Shown in pieces: positions 28,740 to 35,394 of a stretch of DNA of 64,000 nt. The stretch lies in the IMG/VR virus record IMGVR_UViG_2851955134_000009; one strand, given 5' to 3'. The translations under genes and the position numbers were made by a program. The first letter of the stretch is position 1, and each line of letters begins with the position of its first letter. The DNA is from a virus (Duplodnaviria > Heunggongvirae > Uroviricota > Caudoviricetes). The notes below the pieces were generated by a model. It worked only from the letters and a program-made list of their open reading frames with translations, was not told where the DNA came from and searched no databases.

Positions 28740-29620
28740 ACACTCCTCGTCAGTATTCTGGCGGCCATTGCACTTAATCCCGGAGACATGCGGTTGAATG
28801 CTGTGCTGGCGGCGTTAAGCTGCCCGGAAACGGTATCCAGAGCACCTGCAATATTTCTTTTGTCCACACCACTCAGCGCAGACTGTGCCTGCTGTACATA
28901 CGTGGCTGCTTCGCTGGCTGTTCTGGCCAGACTGATGGCATCGGGCATGGATTCAGAGAGTGCGTTAAACGCCGGAACACTTTTCCCCAGAGCCCCGGAG
29001 ATATTACCCAGTCCGCTCATCAGCCCCGGCACACGGGTCAGTGCGACAACGGGGTTATCCTTCATTTTCTGTGTCACCCGAACGGCGCTGATAGTGGTCT
29101 GGAGTACAGACTGCGCCTGTTTCGCATAGTTGACGCCGTTGCGGATGAACTGCGCCACCCCTGAAGGTGAAGGAATGGCACCGGAGACCGCCCCGACACC
29201 CGGGAGCTTCGTGCGTATTGCCGGTGGTTGCAGAGGATTTTTCGGATCACCGGTGTATTCCCGGAGAGACACGGTGGCACTGACAGCCAGCACGTTACCG
29301 GTGCTGTCTGTCTGCTCGCTGGTTGCGGTCACATCGGTAATCACGAACCAGCCACGATAGTCACCGTTGCCGAAGACCAGCGCCAGTGCCTGATGGGCTT
29401 TCATGGTTGTTCGCAGTCTCGCCAGCTCCACATCGGGTGCACAATAATGCTGATGGAAGACCAGACTTATCTGGATTTCGTCCAGCCTGTCGCCGACGAA
29501 CTGCAGGCCAGGCTTACCCCCGATGCGGGCATGCTCCGCATAATCGACGCCGAACGTGGCCTCGAAGCCGTCCCAGTAGGTAATCAGATCAAACTCAATA
29601 TCACCCAGTACGGCAAACAT
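28736..29620 (-). CDS. Tail protein (P2 gpU-like N-domain, Mu N position)
   Basis: 294 aa, directly downstream of tape measure. Confidence 0.65.
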   Translation of the reverse strand: MFAVLGDIEFDLITYWDGFEATFGVDYAEHARIGGKPGLQFVGDRLDEIQISLVFHQHYCAPDVELARLRTTMKAHQALALVFGNGDYRGWFVITDVTATSEQTDSTGNVLAVSATVSLREYTGDPKNPLQPPAIRTKLPGVGAVSGAIPSPSGVAQFIRNGVNYAKQAQSVLQTTISAVRVTQKMKDNPVVALTRVPGLMSGLGNISGALGKSVPAFNALSESMPDAISLARTASEAATYVQQAQSALSGVDKRNIAGALDTVSGQLNAASTAFNRMSPGLSAMAARILTRSV

Positions 29621-32571
29621 CAGCGGTACTCCTTACGTTGTTTCTGAGCCAGCAGACGCTCCAGCATTTTTTCCAGCTCATGCAGACTCATATTCAGGGC
29701 ACCAGTCAGTCCTGCAGGCGCTGTGGTTTCCCTGCCATTGAGGAAAAACTGAGGATTAAAGCTGACCTGGATACCACCAGACGTTCCACCGCCGGTTGCA
29801 GCTGCACCACGGCCTGAATATCCGGCAGCCAGGATTTCAGGCGAGGGGATACGGGGAACATCCGGTGTCATCTCATTTGCCAGACGTTGACCTGGTAAAG
29901 TCGATGCCCGGGTGGAGATCGGAATAGCGGGCATGGAAGACAAACTATTGATTACGGATCCGATCGCATTTTTAGCAGACGACATAAACCCGTTGATATC
30001 GGGCAACGGCATACTGAAGCGAACACCTGAAGTGTTATCCCGTATTTCTGGCCCCTGAATGCTCACGGGCATTCTGGGGAGCAGTTCACTGGCCATTCGC
30101 TGCCCGGCCAGAGCTGCAATCGGAGTGCTCCGCTGCAGGCCAATGGCGGCCCCCTGCGCGATATTGTCACCAAAGCCCATAAACACGCGGCTCGGCGAAT
30201 GAATACCCAGCTTTTCACTGAACCAGCCACTGATGCTGTCACCCATTCCGGTTACACTGGATTTGAGCGACTCCCATTTGTTTTTGATACCGTTAATCAG
30301 ACCGTCGACAAGATGGCCACCGAAGTCGGTGAACTTTGCCGGCAGATCAACACCAAGATATTTCAGCGCAGCTGCAAAGGCTTTATAGAGCAGACCTGCC
30401 GGCGACCAGTTAATCAGCAGCTTACCAGTTCCCGCGATACCGCCGTTAAAGGCCTCCTGAATGTCAGACCAGCACTGTTTAAACCAGCTACTGATGCTGT
30501 CACCCATTCCGGTTACACTGGATTTGAGCGACCCCCATTTGTTTTTGATACCGTTAATCAGACCGTCGACAAGATGGCCACCGAAGTCGGTGAACTTTGC
30601 CGGCAGAGCAACGCCGAAATATTTCAGCGCAGCCGCAAAGGCTTTATAGAGCAGCCCTGCCGGCGACCAGTTAATCAGCAGCTTACCAGTTCCCGCGATA
30701 CCGCCGTTAAAGGCTTCCTGAATGTCAGCCCAGCGCTGTTTAAACCAGCCACTGACTGTCCCCCAGTTGCGGTAGATAAGGTAAGCTGCTGCCGCGACAG
30801 CGGTGATAACGAGACCGATGGGATTCATCATCAGCGCTCGCCCAATCCAGAGAACGGCACGTGCAGCGCTCATAAAACCGCGAACGAGGCTGCCCGCCAG
30901 AACTTTGCTGAGTTTCAGTCCTCCGCTGGTCAGTCGGCTAAATCCAGTGACAAGCCAGCGTAATTTGCCACCTTCTCCTAGTGCGGTAGTCAGTCGATGC
31001 CAGTTGGTCCGGAGTAAAACAGCAGTTTTCCAGACGTTCACAAAGGGGGAAATAAGGAGATTCAGCCCCAGTTTGAGACCAACAGTCGCTATCTTAATCG
31101 CAAGGAGCGCACTGATGAGCTTAAAAGCCCCACTGACAAATTGCGGGTGAGTCGCCACCCAGTGTTTTGCCCCCTGAATGAGTGGGATCAGCTCCTGAGT
31201 CAGAGAAATAAAAGAGGGGGCGAGCTGATCGCCCAGCGTAATAGCCAGATCGCGACTGCTGACCATAAGCGCTTTAGTGGCTTCAAGGGGAGATTTCAGC
31301 CGCTGATCGTAAGCACTGGCAAGCAAATCGTTATCCGCAGCCCTGAGAGCACCGGCACGGATCTCGCGATATCTGTCCATGTTGGCCAGCATCGGGCGGA
31401 TAAATGCCATGACCTGCATATCCGCGAACATATCGCCCAGACCAAAGTTTTTCGCCAGAGCCTGAAGTGCCTCATCTCTTGCCGTATCATTCTTTATTTT
31501 CATGGCGGATTTGAAGCCGGCCAGCGCTTCGGGGCTTTTGGCATTGAGGTAACGTTCTATAACACTCAACATCCCTTCAATCGGAGAGATCCCCGCAGCC
31601 TTATAACTCGCAACAGAACCCTGCAAATCAATACCCAGATCAGCAAACTGTTTCTGAGTATCGCGGGCAAAAATTTTGGTAAGAAAGTTTTTAAAATTAT
31701 TGGCTGCTTCGTCGGTGGAGCCCGCACCGATTTTTGCTATCTGGAGACTGGCCCCGATTTCAGCAACAGCCTCTTTTCCACTGGCAATACCCGCCATCAT
31801 TGGGGCCAGGGACTGCATCCACTTGACCTGATCCGGGATTTCAAATGACCCCTGGTCACCGGCATAAGCCATAATATTCTGGACGGCACTAAAATCTCTG
31901 GCCGCACCTTTCAGGGAGTTTTGCCAGACTGCGGCCACTTTTGCCCAGTCCTGAGATGACGTGCGTGTTGCCGTTGCCGCGCGGGCAATATCCGGCATCA
32001 GAAAACCGATATCTGACAAGTTATCAATATTGTCGCTGATGAGCGAACCCACCGCCTCCTGCAGTTCATCCTGATACTGATTGTATTTTTGCGCCCAGCC
32101 TTTTATCTGTCCGGCAAGTGCATCCCGCGTTTTATTGTCATATTTTGCGGTGATCGACATATCAATCATTTTGTCCTGAAAAGACATGGACTGCTGAACG
32201 GCAGGGGAAACCGTATGATAAACAGTCTGTGCCATGCCATACGCTTCAATCCCCTGACCATACAGCGCCATGCGGTTAGCTTTCAGCGCATCACTGGTGG
32301 CTGATGCCGCTGACAGACGGCGCTGCTGGCGCTCAATTTGCTCCATGGTGCGGCTTACCCGCAGCAGCTCGCTGTTGAGATGCTGCATCCGGGAAGAGCC
32401 CAGTTGACCATAACGTTCTGTTGCACGGGTTAAAGCGTTCTGACGTTCCTGCAGGCGGCGTGAGGTATCGCTCAGGGAATCAAGCGCACGGCGGGTACCG
32501 CTCATTGCAGAACGGAATGTGCTGCCAATCATCCCGCCGATAACAACGCCGACTGAAAACTGTCCCGACAT
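29620..32571 (-). CDS. Tail tape measure protein
   Basis: 983 aa, helical and Gly/Ala-rich, internal 87-aa tandem duplication. Confidence 0.85.
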   Translation of the reverse strand: MSGQFSVGVVIGGMIGSTFRSAMSGTRRALDSLSDTSRRLQERQNALTRATERYGQLGSSRMQHLNSELLRVSRTMEQIERQQRRLSAASATSDALKANRMALYGQGIEAYGMAQTVYHTVSPAVQQSMSFQDKMIDMSITAKYDNKTRDALAGQIKGWAQKYNQYQDELQEAVGSLISDNIDNLSDIGFLMPDIARAATATRTSSQDWAKVAAVWQNSLKGAARDFSAVQNIMAYAGDQGSFEIPDQVKWMQSLAPMMAGIASGKEAVAEIGASLQIAKIGAGSTDEAANNFKNFLTKIFARDTQKQFADLGIDLQGSVASYKAAGISPIEGMLSVIERYLNAKSPEALAGFKSAMKIKNDTARDEALQALAKNFGLGDMFADMQVMAFIRPMLANMDRYREIRAGALRAADNDLLASAYDQRLKSPLEATKALMVSSRDLAITLGDQLAPSFISLTQELIPLIQGAKHWVATHPQFVSGAFKLISALLAIKIATVGLKLGLNLLISPFVNVWKTAVLLRTNWHRLTTALGEGGKLRWLVTGFSRLTSGGLKLSKVLAGSLVRGFMSAARAVLWIGRALMMNPIGLVITAVAAAAYLIYRNWGTVSGWFKQRWADIQEAFNGGIAGTGKLLINWSPAGLLYKAFAAALKYFGVALPAKFTDFGGHLVDGLINGIKNKWGSLKSSVTGMGDSISSWFKQCWSDIQEAFNGGIAGTGKLLINWSPAGLLYKAFAAALKYLGVDLPAKFTDFGGHLVDGLINGIKNKWESLKSSVTGMGDSISGWFSEKLGIHSPSRVFMGFGDNIAQGAAIGLQRSTPIAALAGQRMASELLPRMPVSIQGPEIRDNTSGVRFSMPLPDINGFMSSAKNAIGSVINSLSSMPAIPISTRASTLPGQRLANEMTPDVPRIPSPEILAAGYSGRGAAATGGGTSGGIQVSFNPQFFLNGRETTAPAGLTGALNMSLHELEKMLERLLAQKQRKEYR

Positions 32572-32646
32572 AGTGGTTAACCTCCGGGGAAGGTGAAAAG
32601 ACGTGAGGGGATAACGCAGAACAGCCGCTACTGGCGGCTGTCTGTA

Positions 32647-32904
32647 CTATGATTTGTCGCCGTACTCGCTTTTTATTTGCTCTTCAGCCTGCTCCAGCCA
32701 CATCTCCAGATCGTCAGTATCGAGGGCATCAATCTCCCCCGGCTGAAACCGGAACCATCTCGCCAGCAGCCCCTGCGCCTGCGTCAGCGCCTTTGTCGCT
32801 CTCACCCATCCCCGTGATGAGCTGAAATCGTTTCTGTAACTGCAGGTAATCAGCCAGATCCATATTGTCGAGATCTTCCGGGAGAAGACCAGTACTGCGG
32901 GCAA
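32647..32904 (-). CDS. Frameshift extension of tail assembly chaperone (E'/T-like), expressed only as a fusion
   Basis: ORF in +1 (= -2) frame relative to the chaperone, overlapping its 3' end; no own start (track start is TTG). Confidence 0.6.
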   Translation of the reverse strand: MPAVLVFSRKISTIWIWLITCSYRNDFSSSRGWVRATKALTQAQGLLARWFRFQPGEIDALDTDDLEMWLEQAEEQIKSEYGDKS

Positions 32905-33064
32905 TCAGCGGTTCGTCCCAGTCTGCCGGGTTTTTGCTGATTTTGCGCACCTGCTTCAGGTCTTTTACCGTCAGGCGTTTCAGTTCAACCAGCTCAATTC
33001 TGGTGCCTGCAGCAGTGGTGAAGGGATAAGACAATTTAAAAGTATCGGATGGGGTCTGTGACAT
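32729..33064 (-). CDS. Tail assembly chaperone (gpE/G-like)
   Basis: 111 aa, upstream of tape measure; G5 run 2 codons before stop. Confidence 0.75.
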   Translation of the reverse strand: MSQTPSDTFKLSYPFTTAAGTRIELVELKRLTVKDLKQVRKISKNPADWDEPLIARSTGLLPEDLDNMDLADYLQLQKRFQLITGMGESDKGADAGAGAAGEMVPVSAGGD

Positions 33065-33161
33065 GATTGTGCTCCTGTGTAAGTTCAGGGCAGTATGTCG
33101 GGAGAAGCGCGTGACGGATATTAAAGGAGATTAAGAAGAAGGGGCCGGAGCCCCTGTGATG

Positions 33162-33443
33162 TCAGCAAGTGCGAAACCCCTTGCAGTTACGCAGGAAAGC
33201 GATGAGAAGCGTCTTTCCCTCAGATTTGCCGGTGCCGGAGAACCAGTGGTCGGGAGGCTCCCATGCTTCAATCAAATCCGCCAGTCTGCGGGCCTTTGAA
33301 CGTGTGCAGTCAATCGGGTCATTGGTTTTACGGGTATTAAAAAGGGTTTCCACCCCCGGAATATCAAGGAGGGTAAACCACGTACCATTTGACATGCCCA
33401 GTGCCGCACATCGTCCTCCTTTATCCGTCAGTTCAACACTCAC
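33162..33443 (-). CDS. Hypothetical protein between tail tube and chaperone genes
   Basis: 93-aa ORF, same strand as tail operon. Confidence 0.4.
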   Translation of the reverse strand: MSVELTDKGGRCAALGMSNGTWFTLLDIPGVETLFNTRKTNDPIDCTRSKARRLADLIEAWEPPDHWFSGTGKSEGKTLLIAFLRNCKGFRTC

Positions 33444-33445
33444 CG

Positions 33446-33967
33446 TCAGCCCCCGATATTGATACGGTAGTCAGTCAGTTGATCAACACCGCCGACCCGG
33501 AAGATGTTGGCCAGATAGTCCAGTTGCAGCAGCTCTTCACCATCCAGTACCTGTCTGATATACGTGCATGTGAAGCTACTGGAGAACTCGGCGTTCTCGT
33601 GCTGTTTGAACGTCCCCAGCGGGTTCTTCTTGAACATAATCGTCAGGAAGGTGACCAGCGGGATTTCGTCAATCAGCCCCTGCGAGCTGTAGCGCTGGAC
33701 GCTGGAACGACACTGCAGTGCCAGCGACCTGTACGGGTTCGCGGCAGACAGCATCGCATCGCGGTAAAAGCTGTTCCATTTGATTTCGCCTTCCAGTTTG
33801 TCAAAACCAGCCGGGAGTTCCACCTTACCCACCATCCCCAGCGCCTTGTGTTCCTGCATAATCATGGAGACATCGGGGAGTTTAACTTCCTCAGCCCGTC
33901 CCAGCAGGTTAGTACCATCCAGATAGATGTTGGCATTCGTGATGCGGTTTATCTCAATCTTTGACAT
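33446..33967 (-). CDS. Tail tube protein
   Basis: 173 aa, immediately after sheath gene. Confidence 0.8.
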   Translation of the reverse strand: MSKIEINRITNANIYLDGTNLLGRAEEVKLPDVSMIMQEHKALGMVGKVELPAGFDKLEGEIKWNSFYRDAMLSAANPYRSLALQCRSSVQRYSSQGLIDEIPLVTFLTIMFKKNPLGTFKQHENAEFSSSFTCTYIRQVLDGEELLQLDYLANIFRVGGVDQLTDYRINIGG

Positions 33968-35394
33968 CAGTTGCCCCCTTTCAGGGTTAACAGGTATTCC
34001 GAGGTGATCTCAGTCTCAAACGTCAGTCGCTCCAGCGGCGGTGGTGGCGTATATTTGTAGCTCAGCAACAGGTGCCCGGCGGCCAGCTCCGTCTCCGGAT
34101 TGCGGGCCGGATCAAACCAGCAACGGAAGCCCAGTACCGCACCATCACCAGTCATTTTGCGACCGTAGGCGTTGACCGACTCCGTCAGTGCATCAATCAG
34201 CGCCTGAGTAATCGGCATGTCGATGTACTGCTGGCTGAAATAACGAATGGACTCGTTGATCACATCACCGGTGCGGCGAACGTTCTCAAAGTTACGCATA
34301 TGGGTGACCGTTGGCCATGCTGCCGTCCGGTTACCCCACAGACGAAGGCCGCTGCCGTAACTGCTGAATACCGTGGTGATCCCCTGTTCGTTAAGCAGGT
34401 TCACCTCACTCTGCGGGTCATCAATCATCGCGGACAGCTGGCGCTCCACGCCGGTGATCCCCAGAATCTCCTGATTGGAGGATGACCACCAGTAGCCCTT
34501 GTCCAGATCGACTCTGGCACGCAGACCTGCTGCACGCTGGCTGAGCGGCTCCAGACGCTCCGTGTTTGTCACCGGGTCATATACCTTCACATGCGGATAG
34601 CACAGACGGACGCGGTCGGAGCTGGTATTGAAGTTAATGGTGCCTTCCGGGCCACGACCTGCCAGAGCCTGTGCAAAGGTGGTACCGACAGGCGCATCAA
34701 TGTAGGTTACCGCGCCCAGCTTCTCTGTCATGGCGATAAGCTCAACTGCTACACTCTTCTGGGTGCAGAACACCGGCGCAATCAGAATTTTGGCAAAATA
34801 GCCGTACAGGTTGAAGCTGTCGTTAAGCAGCTTCATGCCGGTTCGGTTTCCGGCGCTGTTCACCCCGCCGATGATGTCCGCCGCAGTCACCTTCGACGGG
34901 TCCGCGTACTCATAGCTCACCTTCACGCTGCCACCGGCCTCAATAGCCTTGCCCAGGTTCGTGAGCACACCCGCCTGCGCATCAACACGGTAGTCCGTGT
35001 TCGCCGTGTGGGTGGTGCTGCCTTCACTGTTTTTCACCACCACATTAGCGACAACCGGATGCGCAAGTCTGGCCTGCCCTGTCGATTTGTCAAAGGTAAC
35101 CACTTCACCCTGGATCGCCGTTTTATGTTTCGCCGGGTCGAGGACGTTAATGACCAGAACGGTGCCTGCACCATGGTCATAAATCGCATCCAGCGCCTGC
35201 GGAATGGTAAAGCCGGTGAACTGGCTGCCAAATGCCGCTGCGTCTTTCTCAGACAGGCACTGTACCAGCGTATTGACGTCCCCCATCGGGGCGGTACCAA
35301 TCAGGCCAATAACGGCAGATTTCACCGTTTTAACCGGGCGGGCACCGTTTTCCACCTCAATGGTTTCGGGACCATGCAGATAGTTAGCTGCCAT
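33967..35394 (-). CDS. Contractile tail sheath protein
   Basis: 475 aa, sheath-tube-chaperone-tape measure order. Confidence 0.85.
   Translation of the reverse strand: MAANYLHGPETIEVENGARPVKTVKSAVIGLIGTAPMGDVNTLVQCLSEKDAAAFGSQFTGFTIPQALDAIYDHGAGTVLVINVLDPAKHKTAIQGEVVTFDKSTGQARLAHPVVANVVVKNSEGSTTHTANTDYRVDAQAGVLTNLGKAIEAGGSVKVSYEYADPSKVTAADIIGGVNSAGNRTGMKLLNDSFNLYGYFAKILIAPVFCTQKSVAVELIAMTEKLGAVTYIDAPVGTTFAQALAGRGPEGTINFNTSSDRVRLCYPHVKVYDPVTNTERLEPLSQRAAGLRARVDLDKGYWWSSSNQEILGITGVERQLSAMIDDPQSEVNLLNEQGITTVFSSYGSGLRLWGNRTAAWPTVTHMRNFENVRRTGDVINESIRYFSQQYIDMPITQALIDALTESVNAYGRKMTGDGAVLGFRCWFDPARNPETELAAGHLLLSYKYTPPPPLERLTFETEITSEYLLTLKGGN

Follow-up and report, generated by a model that had tools for sequence, protein, structure and literature searches.

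A probable +1 frameshift at a conserved CGA_UUU_C motif in the P2 E/E'-type tail assembly chaperone gene of BcepMu-like prophages

We propose, with a probability of roughly 80%, that a +1 ribosomal frameshift at the sequence CGA_UUU_C (positions 32824-32830, minus strand) joins the tail assembly chaperone of a transposable prophage to an overlapping reading frame, yielding a predicted 138-aa protein that resembles the E+E' product of phage P2. The gene pair lies in a window of 64,000 nucleotides (the whole stretch of DNA analyzed, IMG/VR record IMGVR_UViG_2851955134_000009). The first-pass annotation of this window had placed the shift on a run of five G residues (G5) next to the stop codon of the chaperone, about 85 bases downstream of the motif. 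We infer the shift at the motif, its efficiency and the exact tRNA event from comparisons among more than 100 relatives, for which phage records, IMG/VR and a single genome from each species served as sources.

Escherichia phage PhiKM (genus Bcepmuvirus) matches the region at 99% identity, and a close copy was present in 640 out of 5426 complete E. coli genomes. Besides a tail module resembling that of P2, the full prophage carries a DDE transposase, Mu-like head genes and an ExeA/MuB-like gene. The earlier description of the element as Mu-like suits it overall, but not its tail module, which is of the P2 type. The features considered below are as follows.

33967-35394, minus strand: tail sheath gene
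33446-33967, minus strand: tail tube gene (PF04985)
33162-33443, minus strand: small ORF of 93 aa between the tube and chaperone genes
32729-33064, minus strand: chaperone gene in frame 0, encoding the P2 gpE-like short product of 111 aa (PF10109, Phage_TAC_7)
32647-32904, minus strand: overlapping +1-frame ORF, encoding a P2 E'-like tail
29620-32571, minus strand: gene for the tape measure protein, on which the chaperone would be expected to act (PF10145, E = 2.1e-20)
32729-32731, minus strand: frame-0 stop codon (TGA) of the short chaperone, at a position that differs between relatives
32736-32740, minus strand: G5 run, read in the +1 frame as CCG GGG GAG (Pro-Gly-Glu)
32824-32830, minus strand: candidate +1 site CGA_UUU_C (CGA at 32830-32828, UUU for Phe80 at 32827-32825, C at 32824)
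32822-32836, minus strand: block CAG AAA CGA TTT CAG, invariant in enterobacterial relatives, wobble positions included
32647-32823, minus strand: +1-frame segment after the predicted shift, 58 aa plus stop, an E'-like C-terminal extension as judged by pN/pS and PF06528
32668-32766, minus strand: region matching the Pfam family Phage_P2_GpE (E'), beginning 26 nt upstream of the G5 run

Both ORFs exist on the minus strand at the coordinates that the first-pass annotation had assigned to them, and the second indeed lies in the +1 (equivalently, -2) frame and not in the usual -1 frame, because the offset 33064-32904 is 160, which equals 1 modulo 3. The first set comprised 89 relatives, of which 87 have this frame relation. 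Beyond the chaperone, the -1 frame was open for 18 codons only and displayed no selection (pN/pS 1.2-2.6). The overlapping +1 ORF was under purifying selection (pN/pS 0.06-0.45) and had no conserved start codon. The peptide encoded after the predicted shift is SSSRGWVRATKALTQAQGLLARWFRFQPGEIDALDTDDLEMWLEQAEEQIKSEYGDKS (58 aa).

The chaperone matched PF10109, titled 'Phage tail assembly chaperone proteins, E, or 41 or 14', at residues 8-81 with a score of 74.8 bits (cut-off 25; E = 5.5e-21), and its neighbors matched the P2 FII tube, sheath and tape-measure families in Pfam. Its gene sits between those of the tube (PF04985) and the tape measure (PF10145), as in frameshifted chaperone pairs, and PGAP names the products of the chaperone gene and of 29620-32571 'phage tail assembly protein' and 'phage tail tape measure protein', respectively; an NCBIfam scan of the chaperone and the extension gave no meaningful match. 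On these comparisons, the gene pair is probably the equivalent of P2 E/E+E' in a BcepMu-like transposable prophage with a P2-type tail module.

Several other features were observed around the pair. The 93-aa ORF (33162-33443), which displayed a weak match to DUF7739 (E = 2.9e-5, below the cut-off), was found in E. coli and Klebsiella relatives, and is absent from a Salmonella locus (L007) in which the chaperone gene directly follows the tube gene. The interval that separates this ORF from the chaperone gene contains a hairpin resembling a terminator, AGGGGCTCCGGCCCCT, with a T-rich tail after it (33140-33155, minus strand), although both genes should belong to a single late operon. A GC-rich hairpin, CAGCCGC-CAGTA-GCGGCTG followed by TTCTGCGTT (32622-32640, minus strand), lies between the E' stop codon and the start of the tape measure gene; in the alignment of relatives its stem is kept and its loop varies, and a role in attenuation or mRNA stability is possible. 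The tape measure gene itself contains a 261-bp tandem duplication (30221-30755, 2.0 copies, 95% identical), at which the PhiKM record has a sequencing gap. The tape measure protein has 983 aa here compared with approximately 821 aa in KP12- and DEF2-type relatives, and the duplication might lead to a longer tail.

To locate the point at which the translated frame changes, we computed pN/pS in both frames along the overlap, as simple pairwise counts on related sequences and not under a phylogenetic model. The values for frame 0 and the +1 frame were 0.26 and 1.33 in the chaperone core, 1.12 and 0.45 from TTT to the LLARWF motif, 5.33 and 0.06 from LLARWF to the G5 run, and 1.09 and 0.43 after the frame-0 stop. 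The +1 frame is accordingly already under selection 29 codons upstream of G5. In the column profile, variation at frame-0 wobble positions reaches approximately 66 nt before LLARWF, where it gives way to an invariant block and then to variation at +1-frame wobble positions. Within this block, CAG AAA CGA TTT CAG, column entropy was near 0 at all 15 positions, and the flanking codons vary at the wobble position. Over the first three to four codons past TTT, part of the variation among betaproteobacterial sequences is silent in frame 0; these codons are thus dual-coding, and selection alone cannot fix the exact nucleotide of the switch.

The G5 run, which does lie at 32736-32740 near the chaperone stop as previously stated, must be judged against these data. 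Frame 0 ends there as TCA GCC GGG GGA GAT TGA, and the same stretch is read in the +1 frame as CCG GGG GAG ATT GAT (PGEID..., that is, PGEIDALDTDDLEMWLEQ). If frame 0 were read to its end, a shift on the run could proceed by +1 (tRNA-Gly moving from GGG to GGG, junction ...VPVSAGEIDAL) or by -2 (GGA to GGG, junction ...VPVSAGGEIDAL). Re-pairing is chemically possible in both directions, phage Mu offers a precedent with its verified -2 shift on CGG GGG CGA, and a position adjoining the frame-0 stop is typical. However, the claim that this run was the only obvious slip site in the overlap did not hold, since TTT_C (32824-32827), GGG_A, AAA_G and a second GGG_G also permit +1 re-pairing. GGGGG occurs 61 times in the 64 kb of the window, fewer than the 120 matches in shuffled sequences, and the chance of finding it on a given strand of the 176-nt overlap is roughly 10%; its occurrence in the overlap is therefore not unusual.

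An intact G5 run is read through in frame 0 in only 13 of the 88 distinct relatives with the same spacing; in about 31 of the 88 (40 by another count, with the stop four codons ahead of the run) the frame-0 stop lies upstream of the run, and the rest lack the run. In the majority of relatives at 70-86% identity, among them KP12, Phi06_2974B and approximately 40 other distinct sequences, frame 0 ends with GTT TAG four codons before CCGGGGGAG, so that the run falls outside the chaperone ORF. Relative to the start of LLARWF, the frame-0 stops are found at -24, -12, +18, +33 or +39 nt, depending on the relative. In Salmonella, Ralstonia, Pectobacterium and many other relatives the run is replaced by AGT, GGT, CCT-GGG or CCA-GGG, and it is broken by changes (CCT, CCA, GGT) that are synonymous in the +1 frame. 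The +1-frame peptide QAQGLLARWFRFQP(G/S)EID is almost invariant; each nucleotide difference within it is silent in the +1 frame and alters the amino acid encoded by frame 0.

The lineage that does read through the run shows the same pattern. Among its 13 distinct window-like sequences, pN/pS from LLARWF to G5 was 6.44 in frame 0 and 0.04 in the +1 frame, from which it follows that the +1 frame is translated well upstream of G5 in these sequences also. Homology points in the same direction: the weak match of the +1 ORF to PF06528 (Phage_P2_GpE; E = 0.008-0.0016) spans LARWFRF...IKS and starts upstream of G5, and a product joined at G5 lacks LLARWFRFQP and loses this match, whereas the product joined at UUU_C keeps it (residues 100-132, E = 0.0016). 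We therefore abandoned the placement of the shift on G5, given the selected +1 frame upstream of the run (pN/pS 0.04-0.06) and the many relatives, indeed most, that cannot use it, and we regard this model as very improbable. A minor secondary shift on the run might still occur in this lineage, although nothing selects for one.

Database proteins of 138 aa that fuse the two frames directly were considered as evidence for the junction and discarded. Their junctions lie at different homopolymers (mostly G5 to G4, but also A5 and G4), most of these proteins derive from raw-read assemblies, and we took them for indel errors or defective copies. Recurrent single-base deletions at or next to the run (G5 to G4, CC to C) were observed in independent assemblies (L082, 1500-1960; L095; proteins P0003-P0009), and join frame 0 directly to EIDAL. 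The G5 run is an indel hotspot, whether in sequencing or in nature, and such indels could mislead annotation toward a junction at G5. A similar one-base deletion approximately 12 nt upstream of TTT in Apirhabdus apintestini (CP138906, L094, ~1400-1500) places the whole of E' in frame, and the long form would then be constitutive unless the deletion reflects an assembly error or a pseudogene.

Across the relatives it is the CGA_UUU_C motif, and above all its UUU_C, that is conserved. Of 93 distinct +1-type contexts, 92 have TTT followed by C at the site, as does each of the 27 distinct contexts of the BcepMu clade; TTT followed by C thus persists in over 110 distinct contexts, which represent phages of Enterobacterales, Burkholderiales and Pseudomonas, high-GC hosts included. 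The Phe codon at the site is always TTT and never TTC, compared with a TTT share among Phe codons of 54% in the late genes of this phage and 19% in those of BcepMu. The next frame-0 codon is CAG, CAA, CAT, CGC, CGT, CTG or CGG (Q, H, R or L), always with C as its first base. CGA precedes TTT in 86 of 92 contexts and accounts for only 8% of the Arg codons here; in BcepMu the site reads TCC TTT CGC, and its clade relatives have TCC/TCT TTT CGC/CGT. The tetranucleotide TTT_C alone is not specific, because it occurs in frame 5 times in 2514 late-gene codons.

Stop codons bound the position of the shift from both sides. The +1 frame becomes open just three codons ahead of TTT in betaproteobacterial loci and in several loci of the BcepMu clade, and one clade (L162-L169) has its frame-0 stop six codons past TTT. 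The overlap bounded by stops thus comprises approximately 10 codons, within which TTT_C is the sole site where a P-site tRNA could re-pair after a +1 shift. Across the 83 relatives with the same spacing, TTT_C was retained and usable in all 83, the two GGG sites upstream of LLARWF in 72 and 46, AAA_G in 14, and G5 in 13. One distant +1-type locus, from a Gallionellaceae MAG (L149, 1400-1500), lacks TTT_C and has CTT CGG GGG CTT ACC TGA in its short overlap, where CGG_GGG_C resembles the -2 site of Mu; since the TTT_C motif is missing, this locus must use another site.

These comparisons also bear on the two G-runs between TTT and LLARWF, ACG_GGG_A (32812-32810) and GCA_GGG_G (32773-32770), at either of which tRNA-Gly could re-pair after a +1 shift. 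GGG is kept at the first in 72 and at the second in 46-47 of the 83 relatives, and within the first few codons after TTT the selection data are blind. Neither run is universal, however: the first or second is replaced by AGC in Salmonella, GGT in one relative (L109) and GGC in Lonsdalea, and DEF2-type sequences have GGG_C. Moreover, the overlap of L162-L169, in which frame 0 stops so early, contains no G-run, frame 0 ends before the second run in L029 and L133-L138, and the +1 frame is already selected upstream of this second run (segment B1, pN/pS 0.43). A shift on either of these runs is consequently very unlikely, if slightly less so than one on G5.

The +1 ORF could, in principle, be translated alone from an internal start to give a small E'-like protein, with no frameshift involved. 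In one degraded prophage, PGAP calls this ORF by itself as a 52-aa 'GpE family phage tail protein' with a GTG start (WP_001202894.1), and in some relatives a potential start (ATG or GTG) precedes LLARWF in the +1 frame. These starts are not conserved, however; an ACG in the window corresponds to ATG in KP12, and a GTG in the window to GCA in KP12. Selection on the +1 frame extends upstream of the candidate starts (segment B1, pN/pS 0.43), P2 E' is known only as an E+E' fusion, and independent translation leaves the invariant TTT_C and CGA unexplained. We consider it the least probable of the alternatives. Transcriptional slippage on T3 or G5 was dismissed, as both runs are too short by established knowledge.

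A +1 shift at CGA_UUU_C would operate as follows. Most ribosomes would remain in frame 0 and produce the 111-aa chaperone. A minority would shift by +1 at the motif, where the peptidyl-tRNA-Phe on UUU could re-pair perfectly with the overlapping UUC; alternatively, a Phe-tRNA might take UUC directly, out of frame, with CGA in the P site. Slippage from UUU to UUC and direct binding to UUC give the same amino-acid sequence, and a -2 event at this motif has no plausible re-pairing. The shifted ribosomes would then synthesize the 138-aa product, consisting of residues 1-80 followed by SSSRGWVRATKALTQAQGLLARWFRFQPGEID... If the pair works like lambda G/GT and P2 E/E+E', the N-terminal domain common to both products would coat the tape measure protein, and the rare long form would recruit tail tube subunits through its E' domain.

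No conserved RNA structure was found downstream of the motif by RNAalifold on 14 diverse sequences (consensus -4.4 kcal/mol, with essentially no covariation), single-sequence folding of the downstream region gave z = -0.56, and inspection by eye of the sequence just upstream of UUU (CTGCAGTTACAGAAA) revealed no Shine-Dalgarno-like element. The shift is therefore probably of low efficiency, and the frame-0 A-site codon CAG, which is not rare, likewise suggests that efficiency may be low. A low yield would match the small quantity of long form that such a chaperone requires. Bacterial sites of the form UUU_Ynn have been called 'especially prone to +1 frameshifting', and this does not depend on a stop codon; the +1 cassette of influenza PA-X is UCC_UUU_CGU; and CGA is among the few P-site codons that support the +1 shift of Ty3 (all PMC5009743). 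It is conceivable, though rather doubtful, that the conserved CGA is the actual stimulator, with the I:A wobble of tRNA-Arg(ICG) in the P site allowing a Phe-tRNA to be accepted on UUC in a Ty3-like manner, independently of slippage. If this is the case, the motif would be a bacterial +1 signal, selected in nature, that works without a stop codon, hungry codon, Shine-Dalgarno sequence or RNA structure, present yet unannotated in hundreds of E. coli genomes.

For this element PGAP annotates the short chaperone only, and the long product was absent from the public annotations inspected. We found no description, in the searchable literature or in annotation, of a conserved CGA_UUU_C or UUU_CGN +1 site in P2 E/E'-type chaperones of BcepMu-like and related prophages. 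The GenBank record of BcepMu (AY539836, L092, 4603-5364) annotates gp42 and gp43 as a frameshift pair resembling lambda G/T. By homology, the pair should instead be gp41, the TAC_7 chaperone, and gp42, the +1-frame E' ORF, joined through TCC TTT CGC, and gp43 looks like an off-frame ORF overlapping the start of the tape measure gene. In E. coli Ec1117 (NZ_CP126602, L153, 23563-23721), the PGAP locus tags skip from RS07930 (tape measure) to RS07940 (chaperone), which suggests that an E' ORF call was formerly made and then dropped.

Frameshifting in tail assembly chaperones is textbook recoding, and nearly all annotated cases are -1. The existence of such shifts, the use of +1 in some phages and the shiftiness of UUU_Y are already known. 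The present results add a large clade of P2 E/E'-type chaperones that appear to use +1 at CGA_UUU_C or UUU_CGN, in BcepMu-like and related prophages of Enterobacterales, Burkholderiales and Pseudomonas, and hence a natural example of a shift-prone UUU_Y +1 site; the other proposed bacterial example, YopN-TyeA, is contested. Frameshift predictors currently fail on forward shifts (PMC10274946), and a set that mixes -1, +1 and -2 chaperones, the last represented by the more distantly related chaperone of Mu, would be useful for training them.

Among known systems, the CUU_UGA_C site of prfB (RF2) is similar in that a P-site tRNA would re-pair by +1 on a U-rich tetranucleotide, but in prfB a stop codon occupies the A site, which is CAG here, and the chaperone has no apparent autoregulatory logic and no Shine-Dalgarno-like stimulator seen by eye. 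The chaperone of Mu (gp41/Mu_56) likewise lies between the tube and tape-measure genes, has a +1/-2 extension and carries a G5 near the end of frame 0. The GenBank record of Mu states 'verified -2 translational frameshift in PMID 15469818' at GAA CGG GGG CGA, and a review confirms the -2 shift (PMC5009743), in agreement with the first-pass statement of a -2 shift on a G-rich site in Mu. The analogy with the G5 run here, while mechanistically possible, was not borne out: Mu gp41 belongs to PF23746 (9e-35) and reaches TAC_7 only at a borderline score (24.7 vs 25 bits), the window protein has no PF23746 match, the Mu extension has no GpE domain, and the selected frame in the window changes elsewhere than at G5.

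The motif also resembles UUU_Y sites, with UUU in the zero frame followed by a pyrimidine, re-pairing of tRNA-Phe to UUC and no need for an adjacent stop codon. The TCC/TCT TTT CGC/CGT of the BcepMu clade is almost the same as the PA-X cassette. In the enterobacterial clade, however, UUU has a conserved CGA in front of it and CAG, in place of a slow Arg codon, behind it. The site seems here to act as a recoding signal that selection has conserved within a gene for phage morphogenesis.

A close counterpart is P2 itself, where the heptamer T_TTT_TTG directs the programmed -1 shift that makes gpE+E' (Christie et al. 2002, cited in PMC3091744). Both systems share the gene order tube, E, E', T and a PF10109 N-terminus, and the extension, which is E' in P2, is E'-like here by a weak PF06528 match. 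The 142-aa gpE+E' of P2 has TAC_7 at residues 7-85, the proven -1 site at residue 85 and GpE at 104-139; the fusion predicted here, 138 aa long, has TAC_7 at 8-82 and the GpE match at 100-132. In each the junction falls on a Phe codon at the end of TAC_7, with GpE following 19 aa on in P2 and 17-20 aa past F80 here, and the extension motif aligned with AVIFHWPPSEL of P2. The two differ in the shift (-1 at T_TTT_TTG compared with +1 at CGA_UUU_C), in the carrier, which is a Mu-like transposable phage and not a P2-like one, and in the match to PF06528, which here covers profile positions 4-36 of 37 and, at 14.6-18.4 bits (E 0.0016-0.023), stays below the Pfam gathering score of 23. In three Pasteurellaceae loci (L010, L151 and L152), E' occupies the -1 frame, and a G_GGA_AAG heptamer is conserved close to the chaperone stop, directly next to it in L010 and a few codons upstream in L151 and L152. 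The family thus displays -1 and +1 solutions at equivalent positions, and would meet the same stoichiometry problem by -1 in P2 and Pasteurellaceae and by +1 in the BcepMu-like clade.
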